Origin: Camelus dromedarius
Taxonomy: Eukaryota
NCBI RefSeq assembly: GCF_036321535.1
Contig: NC_087436.1
Coordinates: 11,346,001 to 11,410,000 of the forward strand
Length of the DNA stretch: 64,000 nucleotides
Direction: 5' to 3'
Position numbers and translations under genes: made by a program. Under the pieces are notes generated by a model. That model had not been told where the DNA came from and did no database searches. It was given only the letters and a program-made list of their open reading frames with translations. Shown in pieces: positions 29,643 through 30,462 of this stretch (position 1 is the first letter of the stretch; each line of letters starts with the position of its first letter).

Positions 29643-30462
29643 CTTTAAGCGTTTCTTGGGAACAGAGCATGACGAAATTCATGTTAAGCTGCTAAATGAA
29701 GAAAAGAGTGTTGTAGATAAAATAACTGGGAAAAAAATCCAAATATCAGACCACGGATCCACGTTGAAAAGTCTGCTTTATGAAATAACCAACAAGTGTT
29801 CCCAGACTGACCTGGATTTACTCACAGGCATTGAAAGAATCCACAGAAGCTATGAAAATTTAGAGAGCCCAGCAGCCTTTTGGTCTGAAGTGAAGAAGGA
29901 GGTTTTCACTCTCCCCCCACAGTATTTTGGCTTGCACAAAATGATCAGCACCTTTCAGGTCCATTTGACACTGGAGCCTGAAACTGCTCACCACAGCCTC
30001 CAAATTTCACAAGATCGGAAAACTGCAACTTTTCGATGGATGGAACCAAACTGTGTTCATCCTCCCCAAGTGTTTACTTCTTACCCCGCTGTCCTGAGTT
30101 CAGAGGGTTTTGATGCTGGCAGGCATTTTTGGCAGGTAGAAGGCAGAGGCAGTGGGGAATGGTCCTTAGGGGTGTGTAAAGAATCTTTCCCTAGAAATTC
30201 TCTTGTGTCACCTTCCCCAAGCAATGGCTGCTGGCAAATTCAGCTCTGGGGAACCACCCGTGACACACGGGTTTCAGGAAATGCCTGTCGGATTGGCATT
30301 TTTCTGGACTATGATTTGGGAGAAGTTTCTTTTTACAATTTGAATGATAGGTCTCCTTTGTATATATTCAGTGACATTTTTACAGAAAAACTTATGCCCT
30401 ATTTCTCTATTAGACCTTCTTCTAAATCACTTACAATAAGTATAGTTGAAGATGAGTGCTGA
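29077..30462 (+). CDS. TRIM60/TRIM75-like paralog A, 461 aa (RING/B-box2/CC/PRY-SPRY), uninterrupted CDS
   Basis: ATG in a strong context (ACGATGG) begins [36 protein letters not shown]. It has a B-box (CEKH..C....CPQC....H..H), LEPETAH and [22 protein letters not shown] lies at 30524-30529. Confidence 0.9.
   Translation: [461 protein letters not shown]

Follow-up and report, generated by a model that had tools for sequence, protein, structure and literature searches.

In a 64,000-nucleotide stretch of the Camelus dromedarius genome (NC_087436.1, positions 11,346,001 to 11,410,000; hereafter the window), two TRIM61/TRIM60-like genes, paralogs A and B, face each other 30 kb apart, each as a single open reading frame (ORF) of 461 residues. 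They are the arms of an old inverted duplication, and gene conversion has acted on both sides of a short island in their central coiled coil. Within this island the A and B versions have been retained across species and the dimer core is conserved, and a divergence peak in the same region recurs between paralogs in 7 of 9 other mammalian lineages. We consider it probable that an outer surface specific to each paralog is protected from conversion by selection, following an early burst of change that fell mainly on B.

The divergent island and its converted flanks

A codon-by-codon comparison of A and B showed that 17 of 30 residues and 33 of 90 bases differ in codons 192-221 (the patch), and that residues 1-191 and 222-243 are identical in protein between the two genes of the window. 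This confirmed the initial annotation, which had described a patch with 17 differences between 191 and 22 identical residues and had called it more divergent than the SPRY: 57% of the patch residues differ, against 19 of 105 in SPRY 349-453 and 10 of 21 in its hottest part, 392-412. The absence of an indel (insertion or deletion), also claimed there, held for the net length of the gene; a weak off-diagonal match inside codons 201-205 would allow a compensated pair. The insertion nearest to the peak lies in the 3' flank. In a chance test, codons 189-461 were permuted 20,000 times and the best 30-codon window was scored: no permutation reached 33 or more base differences and one reached 17 or more residue differences (p = 5e-5). 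The divergence of the patch is real and not a product of chance.

Since the split of camels and alpaca, ∼16-17 million years ago, the A version of the patch has changed at 2 of 30 residues and the B version at 3-4 of 30. The patch is an old divergence between the paralogs that is stable within each version, and the earlier term "hypervariable" does not describe it. Across the six camelid sequences compared, 37 positions distinguish A from B without exception, and 15 of these fall in the 30 codons of the patch. In the B patch V200, F203, V/M204 and Y214 were gained, and H202, L206 and K215 were lost. The ratio of non-synonymous to synonymous divergence (dN/dS) of the patch was 0.35, 0.53 and 0.73 at kappa 1, 2 and 4 by the Nei-Gojobori method and 0.87 by that of Li (1993; dS 0.58, dN 0.50), with dS 0.18 and dN 0.08 in codons 222-461. 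Synonymous divergence in the patch is thus about three times that of codons 222-461. The corresponding proportions of differing sites were pS 0.43-0.59 and pN 0.31-0.34 in the patch and pS 0.15-0.18 and pN 0.07-0.08 in codons 222-461; the bootstrap interval of the patch pN/pS ran from 0.26-0.35 up to 1.3-1.5 and so includes values above 1.

Around the patch, divergence between the arms varies widely. In the non-coding 3' flank 125 of 584 aligned bases differ (Kimura two-parameter distance 0.22-0.31), and because this flank is so diverged the duplication is old, and older than the bulk of the gene would imply. The 3' untranslated part diverges by 0.13-0.18, the ∼2.1 kb upstream by 0.9%, and codons 1-188 by a single base in 564. 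The upstream tract (26998-28660 against 64000-62350) is itself layered, with ∼1% difference and several small indels far upstream, and 2 differences in ∼980 bases, at 64-67% guanine plus cytosine (GC), beside and inside the gene.

Segment trees were built on 35 proteins; the patch has few columns, so its deep forks are tentative. For residues 1-135 the camelid sequences grouped by species (alpaca A and B at 99/89, with four camel rows identical), and for the patch they grouped by paralog (A 98/93, B 100/99). In the patch tree A and B were not resolved as sisters, and the B stem was long (0.79 against 0.23). The B30.2 tree, unlike that of residues 1-135, was ordered by paralog inside a camelid clade (98/95). 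Residues 263-296 are identical in alpaca A and B.

Fifteen camelid records were set beside the window genes. Eight carry an A-type and seven a B-type patch, and none is mosaic within 192-221, although two of them end at 213. Switches between A and B type occur at 179-191, 232-254, 267-270, 292 and 306-309. B-specific residues at 179, 180, 182, 184 and 185 are found in dromedary P0132/P0134, Bactrian P0133, wild camel P0225 and alpaca P0003/P0025; one other dromedary record, P0224, shares the junction of the window's B. Because six of the seven B-type records are B-specific from residue 179, the comparison indicates that the true island spans about 179-221, and that the codon-188 edge in the window's B is the boundary of a recent A-to-B conversion tract. 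The 191 identical residues would then belong to this haplotype or copy, an observation that holds for the window pair and fails as a general edge. All two-humped copies have E at residue 153, whereas both dromedary genes have K; together with the A-type sequence of the window's B up to codon 188, this shows that conversion is recent and close. Bactrian and wild camel have a frameshifted copy of 339-357 residues in which a B-type PRY follows A-type sequence over residues 1-291. This suggests that the whole patch can be replaced by conversion, as seen once, in a truncated copy of uncertain orthology. As a barrier to conversion tracts, a role proposed for it initially, the patch would be at most partial, since conversion proceeded to codon 188 in the window's B and the truncated copy has the whole A-type patch.

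The course of events can be put together as follows. The duplicated gene was TRIM61-like and lay in the TRIM75-TRIM60 cluster; A and B are its two inverted arms. Trees and mosaics show that interlocus gene conversion repeatedly overwrites the promoters and the RING/B-box halves, and the 3' halves less often. The central coiled coil (∼179-221) has escaped, having diverged before the camel/alpaca split and mostly on the B branch, after which each version was nearly fixed. With an unchanged dimer core and a different outer face, A and B could each offer a surface of their own to a partner, a cargo or a higher-order assembly, and we infer that conversion tracts erasing the surface of B were removed by selection.

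Position of the changes on the coiled-coil helix

The AlphaFold2 model of A contained helices at 133-240, 245-260 and 285-293, with a mean predicted local distance difference test (pLDDT) of 78 and a predicted template modelling score (pTM) of 0.40. The coiled coil of A aligned to the TRIM5 structures 4TN3 and 5W9A (E-values 4e-4 and 1e-3). Residues 186, 187, 190, 193, 194, 197 and 201 align with TRIM5alpha D186, F187, L190, I193, L194, E197 and E201, the mutated dimer-core and L2/SPRY-packing residues of that protein (PMC5667893). All seven positions are identical in A and B of the window. The 13 identical columns of the patch are the family-conserved ones (0.53 against 0.30, p = 0.002, 112 homologs). 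With the helical phase set by the TRIM5alpha residues alone, the differing residues lay ∼120 degrees off the core face, compared with 55 degrees for the identical ones (p 0.0003-0.006 at 98-100 degrees per residue). Zero-fold sites differed at 15 of 28 to 18 of 32 positions (54-56%) on the outer face and at 7 of 30 to 4 of 26 (15-23%) on the inner face (p 0.03-0.002); the outer-face value is above the 21% of the non-coding flank. A like comparison on 14 of the 29 non-camelid pairs described below gave more change on the outer face than on the inner in all 7 of the other lineages.

From antiparallel symmetry around residue 190, residues beyond ∼200 would pack on residues 153-182 of the partner, which are identical here in A and B, so that the helix contacts of an AB dimer would be the mean of those of AA and BB. 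The earlier idea that the patch prevents A/B heterodimers is weakened by the identity of the dimer-core positions. Heterodimer exclusion is not the most natural reading for the window haplotype, and is possible for B copies that keep 179-185. A heterodimer predicted from A 130-296 and Bactrian B 130-296 scored 0.59 (best of 3 controls 0.00); its runs agreed in at least 92% of contacts and the partner pLDDT was at least 77, which lends it weak support. Of the 78 solved pairs, 51 attained the score mark, against 2 of the 108 mismatched ones; passing scores of 0.60 or below, however, comprised only 5 of the 78 solved pairs but all 4 passing mismatches. As like complexes have already been solved and close cousins pass, this model says nothing on A/B selectivity.

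Recurrence in other mammals and competing explanations

Recurrence was assessed on an alignment of 125 species-labelled proteins, consisting of the best 120 of 913 hits and cluster members, with unnamed, fused and short rows excluded. Pairs were picked by their distance outside 176-221. Paralog pairs were nearest within-species matches at distances of 0.03-0.25 (32 pairs, 29 of them non-camelid, 9 lineages), and ortholog pairs were reciprocal best matches between species, for which limits of 0.02-0.25 gave 44 pairs and 18 non-camelid groups; the sloth, sirenian, shrew, fruit-bat and rhino paralogs lay outside the distance limits. The ratio of patch to outside divergence had a median of 2.66 in the non-camelid paralog lineages and was above 1.5 in 7 of the 9; in the ortholog groups its median was 0.95, with 3 of the 18 above 1.5 (Mann-Whitney p = 3e-4). 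Among paralogs it reached 5.7 in elephant, 5.4 in talpids, 3.0 in marmoset, 2.8 in hippo, 2.7 in suids, 2.5 in golden mole and 2.2 in molossids. In sliding windows the median paralog ratio exceeded 2 only for starts 152-202; a start at 212 gave 1.8, and SPRY 372-421 formed a lesser rise of 1.5-1.9. The result was the same with pairs chosen on whole-length distance and with all within-species pairs up to 0.30.

The recurrent peak is centred near residue 190, where the central residues of the TRIM5alpha dimer align. Pig and warthog orthologs differ at 0 and 2 of 30 patch residues, and the regions 62-91 and 232-281, which change fastest between orthologs, have no paralog excess. Low constraint alone is insufficient for the recurrence, because orthologs evolve at an average rate in the peak and faster regions lack the paralog excess. 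While the pattern is observed and its cause can only be deduced, a recurrent peak in the same region makes chance or low constraint an unlikely origin. The columns that differ in camels tended to differ in the other lineages (0.40 vs 0.33, p 0.07), a weak effect. Grouping camelid B, pig2 and hippo3 as one ancient lineage on their shared F203 was not resolved by 30- and 46-column trees. A metagenome scan for outgroup DNA returned 80 loci, all of them distant RING matches, and no mammalian ortholog.

Several points weigh against selection for a paralog-specific surface. dN/dS was above 1 in no test. One half of the island, 179-185, has been lost from the window's B and from P0224 and therefore cannot be strictly necessary. 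On the helix, the face effect was gone at 102.9 degrees per residue (p 0.27), and outer zero-fold sites were not significantly above the synonymous-class sites of the patch (11 of 32, 34%; p 0.13-0.19). Across species, vespertilionid (1.33, 13 pairs) and miniopterid bats (0.97) have little or no excess; the evidence is at the protein level, with orthologs presumed from reciprocal best matches and not from synteny, and the sample comprises few rodents or primates and no ruminants. Across the family as a whole this region is, at depth, one of the more variable ones (47th of 432 windows). Outside the patch, too, B evolved faster than A (21 against 3 derived residues relative to hippo P0005, for instance), and relaxed constraint would give the same; within the patch the excess of B was significant with only one of seven outgroups. 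Moreover, some B-like camelid copies are truncated (P0025, P0224).

The alternative that survives best, although we hold it to be unlikely, is a neutral relic. The patch would then be the oldest unconverted stratum, where mismatches block conversion and the island maintains itself without paralog-specific function, its core being kept by ordinary purifying selection. Synonymous divergence is indeed raised as much as non-synonymous divergence, the third positions of the patch (10 of 30 differing) are compatible with the old flank (p 0.17), and a bias of core versus surface is expected in any coiled coil. Conversion was also more extensive in the GC-rich 5' half (64-67%) than in the AT-rich 3' half, and GC falls to 35% where the patch begins. 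However, a relic would not account for the same peak in seven of nine independent lineages with average-rate orthologs. Regions 62-91 and 232-281, although less constrained, were homogenised all the same, conversion overwrote the diverged codons 179-188 next door as well as the full patch of the truncated copy, and the first and second positions of the patch (23 of 60) differ more than the flank (p 0.006, uncorrected for window choice).

A compensated frameshift or micro-rearrangement at B codons 202-207 (about +5 and then -5 bases), which would inflate both dN and dS and is compatible with the other readings, is rather improbable. B codons 203-205 match A at 8 of 9 bases with a 5-base offset (null p 0.025), and the +1 frame of A reads F-M-L, like alpaca B, giving 9 of 9 if the alpaca codons, deduced from protein, are otherwise like those of camel B (null p 0.001). 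The gain of a gapped alignment, however, was significant only at light gap penalties (p 0.009, 0.057 and 0.29), F203 is common to pig and hippo paralogs, R to M takes one base change, and 21 of 72 bases differ even without codons 202-207.

Ongoing diversifying selection, an arms race in which the patch evades or binds an antagonist, is very unlikely; the initial annotation had offered diversifying selection as a possible interpretation, with evasion of an antagonist as one example. Positively selected coiled-coil codons are known in TRIM5, TRIM22 and young primate TRIMs (PMC2151084, PMC3228819), the changes in the patch are surface-exposed, and the upper bootstrap bound of pN/pS extends above 1. 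Against this stand the stable orthologs in camelids and suids and the median ortholog ratio near 1. The dN/dS values of 0.35-0.87 together with equally high synonymous divergence are the outcome that the annotation itself had named as speaking against its proposal. In bats, neither interferon nor virus induced the TRIM60/75 paralogs, and none of the TRIM60 sites listed there as selected (nearest 168 and 234 in the paper's numbering) falls within 192-221 (PMC10145180). Of the original proposal of selection on the coiled coil, a paralog-specific surface gained support, through trans-species retention next to recent conversion and through the seven of nine lineages, and ongoing diversification did not.

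Import of the B patch by conversion from a third, more distant paralog, also raised at the outset, would fit the long B stem, the failure of A and B to pair as sisters in the patch tree and the existence of third camelid copies; it is highly improbable. Searches of the window found no donor (TRIM60 reached 59%, over the A patch only), and region searches among proteins gave only camelid A- or B-types (4 matches among 13 candidates, and 1 of 3). Template switching was tried as an origin of the B patch and rejected, the best reverse-complement matches (7 of 8 to 10 of 14) being unremarkable. An assembly or sequencing artefact is hardly credible: near-identical inverted repeats are hard to assemble and the exact A and B proteins of the window are absent from the protein collection, but each of the two patch types is found among the records of dromedary, Bactrian, wild camel (B-type to residue 213) and alpaca, 16 of the 24 listed runs contain at least half of the words of the 3' part of B, and the junction of the window was seen again in P0224.

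Known systems and the surrounding locus

A divergence peak in a converting gene pair is an established signature of selection, and A and B appear to fit its pattern. Exon 5 of the primate red/green opsins offers the same picture of neighbouring duplicates tens of kb apart with a peak in a short coding stretch, and of within-species similarity outside the peak and ortholog similarity inside it (PMC3924837). The opsins have two selected sites of known function, whereas A and B are each one ORF without introns for calibration and their function is putative; unlike that of the opsins, the A/B-type peak recurs in independent duplications across orders. Trans-species paralog-specific residues are likewise kept despite conversion in Leptodactylus ATP1A1 R/S (10.1101/2020.08.04.234435) and ruminant CEACAM32 (PMC7042247). 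ATP1A1 has 12 scattered substitutions of tested function, compared with 15 fixed differences in 30 coiled-coil codons, known from sequence only, in A and B. TRIM5alpha and TRIM22 share with A and B the RING-B-box-coiled-coil-B30.2 order, divergence in the coiled coil and a B30.2 loop, and aligning core residues (PMC2151084, PMC5667893). They are interferon-linked restriction factors that change fast between orthologs (PMC2151084), whereas A and B have stable orthologs and differ between paralogs. On the two traits compared, A and B depart from the arms-race pattern of TRIM5/TRIM22: their pairwise dN/dS is not above 1 and ortholog change is not rapid.

The closest solved coiled coil of the cluster is that of mouse TRIM75 (PDB 7UG2), which forms tetramers in that antiparallel dimers pair further via the central helix (PMC9471973). 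The tetramer uses a hydrophobic face and a cysteine, where A and B have V/A187 (by offset), and the A/B differences are mostly on the opposite face. The bat TRIM60/61/75 expansion concerns the same cluster, bounded by TMEM192 and APELA, with lineage-specific duplications and low somatic expression in bats; the available part of that paper treats site-model selection only and contains neither gene conversion nor a coiled-coil island (PMC10145180). It cites other works for mouse TRIM60 as testis-specific and KIF3A/B-bound. No description of conversion or of a coiled-coil island in TRIM60/61/75 was found in the literature searched, mostly open papers without supplements, of which the bat Table S2 and Figure S1 may bear on the matter. 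TRIM60/61/75 are not mentioned in PMC10709114.

If selection maintains the surface, contact with a partner or a higher-order assembly is its somewhat likely use; a choice between homodimer and heterodimer is a doubtful one, and contact with a pathogen antagonist would be improbable. We would favour a role in assembly or trafficking over antiviral defence, because mouse TRIM75 forms tetramers, TRIM60 is linked to testis and KIF3A/B, and bat paralogs are not interferon-induced. More tentatively, the central coiled coil of TRIM61-like proteins could be an evolvable identity code, re-coded by selection (∼150-230, around the two-fold axis) at each placental-lineage duplication, so that sisters sharing promoter, RING and B-box assemble or route separately. 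Each would then form its own homodimers, its own lattice or bind its own motor or cargo partner, plausibly in germ cells, and specificity would depend less on the SPRY than on the coiled coil, contrary to the usual view of TRIMs. The recurrence across orders would mark ∼150-230 as the place where new TRIM61-like paralogs gain identity. Partner choice among some 80 TRIM proteins with one coiled-coil fold is little understood, and camelid A and B offer a natural experiment in this respect, with identical RING, B-box, first helix half and core and an outer face that differs over 30 residues, and patch swaps would make coiled-coil specificity directly testable. Site-model scans of the TRIM60/61/75 cluster, as in bats, mix conversion strata and may misplace selection.

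Both A and B contain a RING (Pfam families above cut-off at 16-56, an N-terminal C3HC4), a B-box (PF00643, 94-133) and a PRY-SPRY (PF13765, 297-345; PF00622, 349-453); by family membership, an antiparallel dimer and E3 ligase activity are putative. The genes at 34418-35833 and 2033-3478 group in protein clusters named TRIM60 and TRIM75. A and B are 41-43% identical to them and belong to a third branch of the cluster. The homolog clusters of this branch (pig, horse, bear, camel) hold records named TRIM61 and others named TRIM60-like or TRIM75-like, and orthology of A and B to TRIM61 itself is putative. The closest named records to A and B are from Camelus and Vicugna, and K153 and E220 of the window genes agree with dromedary records. 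Coordinates are given in Table 1.

Table 1. Positions in the window of the paralogs A and B, their segments and neighbouring genes.
Feature	Position	Strand	Remarks
Paralog A, TRIM61/TRIM60-like	29077..30462	+	Single ORF, 461 residues: RING, B-box 2, coiled coil, PRY-SPRY
Paralog B	60547..61932	-	461 residues, inverted relative to A; in-frame ATG further upstream at 62040
Patch in A, codons 192-221	29650..29739	+	C-terminal half of the long coiled-coil helix (predicted 133-240)
Patch in B, codons 192-221	61270..61359	-	B-type in dromedary, Bactrian, wild camel and alpaca records
Codons 179-188 in A	29611..29640	+	Belongs to the ancestral island; the window's B is A-type here, whereas 6 of 7 B-type records have B-specific residues
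5' homogenised tract of A	26998..29642	+	Codons 1-188 with the ∼2.1 kb preceding them
5' homogenised tract of B	61367..64000	-	Pairs with 26998-29642; continues past the window end
Codons 222-243 of A	29740..29805	+	1 of 66 bases differs; conversion in camels, with alpaca B distinct at 232 and 234
Codons 244-461 of A	29806..30462	+	Intermediate stratum, 10% of bases differ
Second, smaller peak, SPRY codons 392-412	30250..30312	+	10 of 21 residues differ between A and B
Old non-coding 3' flank of the duplication	31733..32690	+	Colinear with 60126-59335 (-)
TRIM60	34418..35833	-	Between both arms; 43% identical to A; not the patch donor
TRIM75-like gene	2033..3478	-	Cluster member with 42% identity to A; not the patch donor

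After the duplication the flanks received copy-specific insertions, ∼1.1 kb in the A flank (30700-31730) and a 164-base poly-T-led element in the B flank. The shared 3' flank resembles what we take to be an old L1M fragment with a MER58-like insertion. Four sequencing runs recorded as RNA, two of them labelled reproductive system, contained 0.36-0.60 of the words of the 3' part of B and were not used as evidence of expression.

The records P0123, P0124, P0128 and P0025 are truncated third or variant camelid copies. In two-humped camels the A/B chimera shifts frame near codon 331; a different frameshift, near 322, brings a B-type alpaca record to the same stop. In camel A, codons 268-270 (29878-29886, + strand) in linker L2 changed from ISY to FWS after the alpaca split; with an 8-base inverted match at 29746-29753, 135 bases upstream, a template switch is conceivable. 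The gene models P0122, P0132 and P0001 exit the ORF just after Q353 (∼30136, + strand, and at the same place in B), where CAG is followed by GT, a possible splice that would truncate the SPRY. The B-type models P0224 (dromedary) and P0225 (wild camel) leave the frame at Q213 (∼61294, - strand, B codons 213-214); the donor-like GT of B within the patch at Q213 could yield a short RING-B-box-half-coil isoform or be a modelling artefact. Between TRIM75 and A lies a decayed TRIM remnant (7396-7987, - strand), which retains a coiled-coil end and a PRY-SPRY in broken frames and is 28-45% identical to the genes of the cluster.

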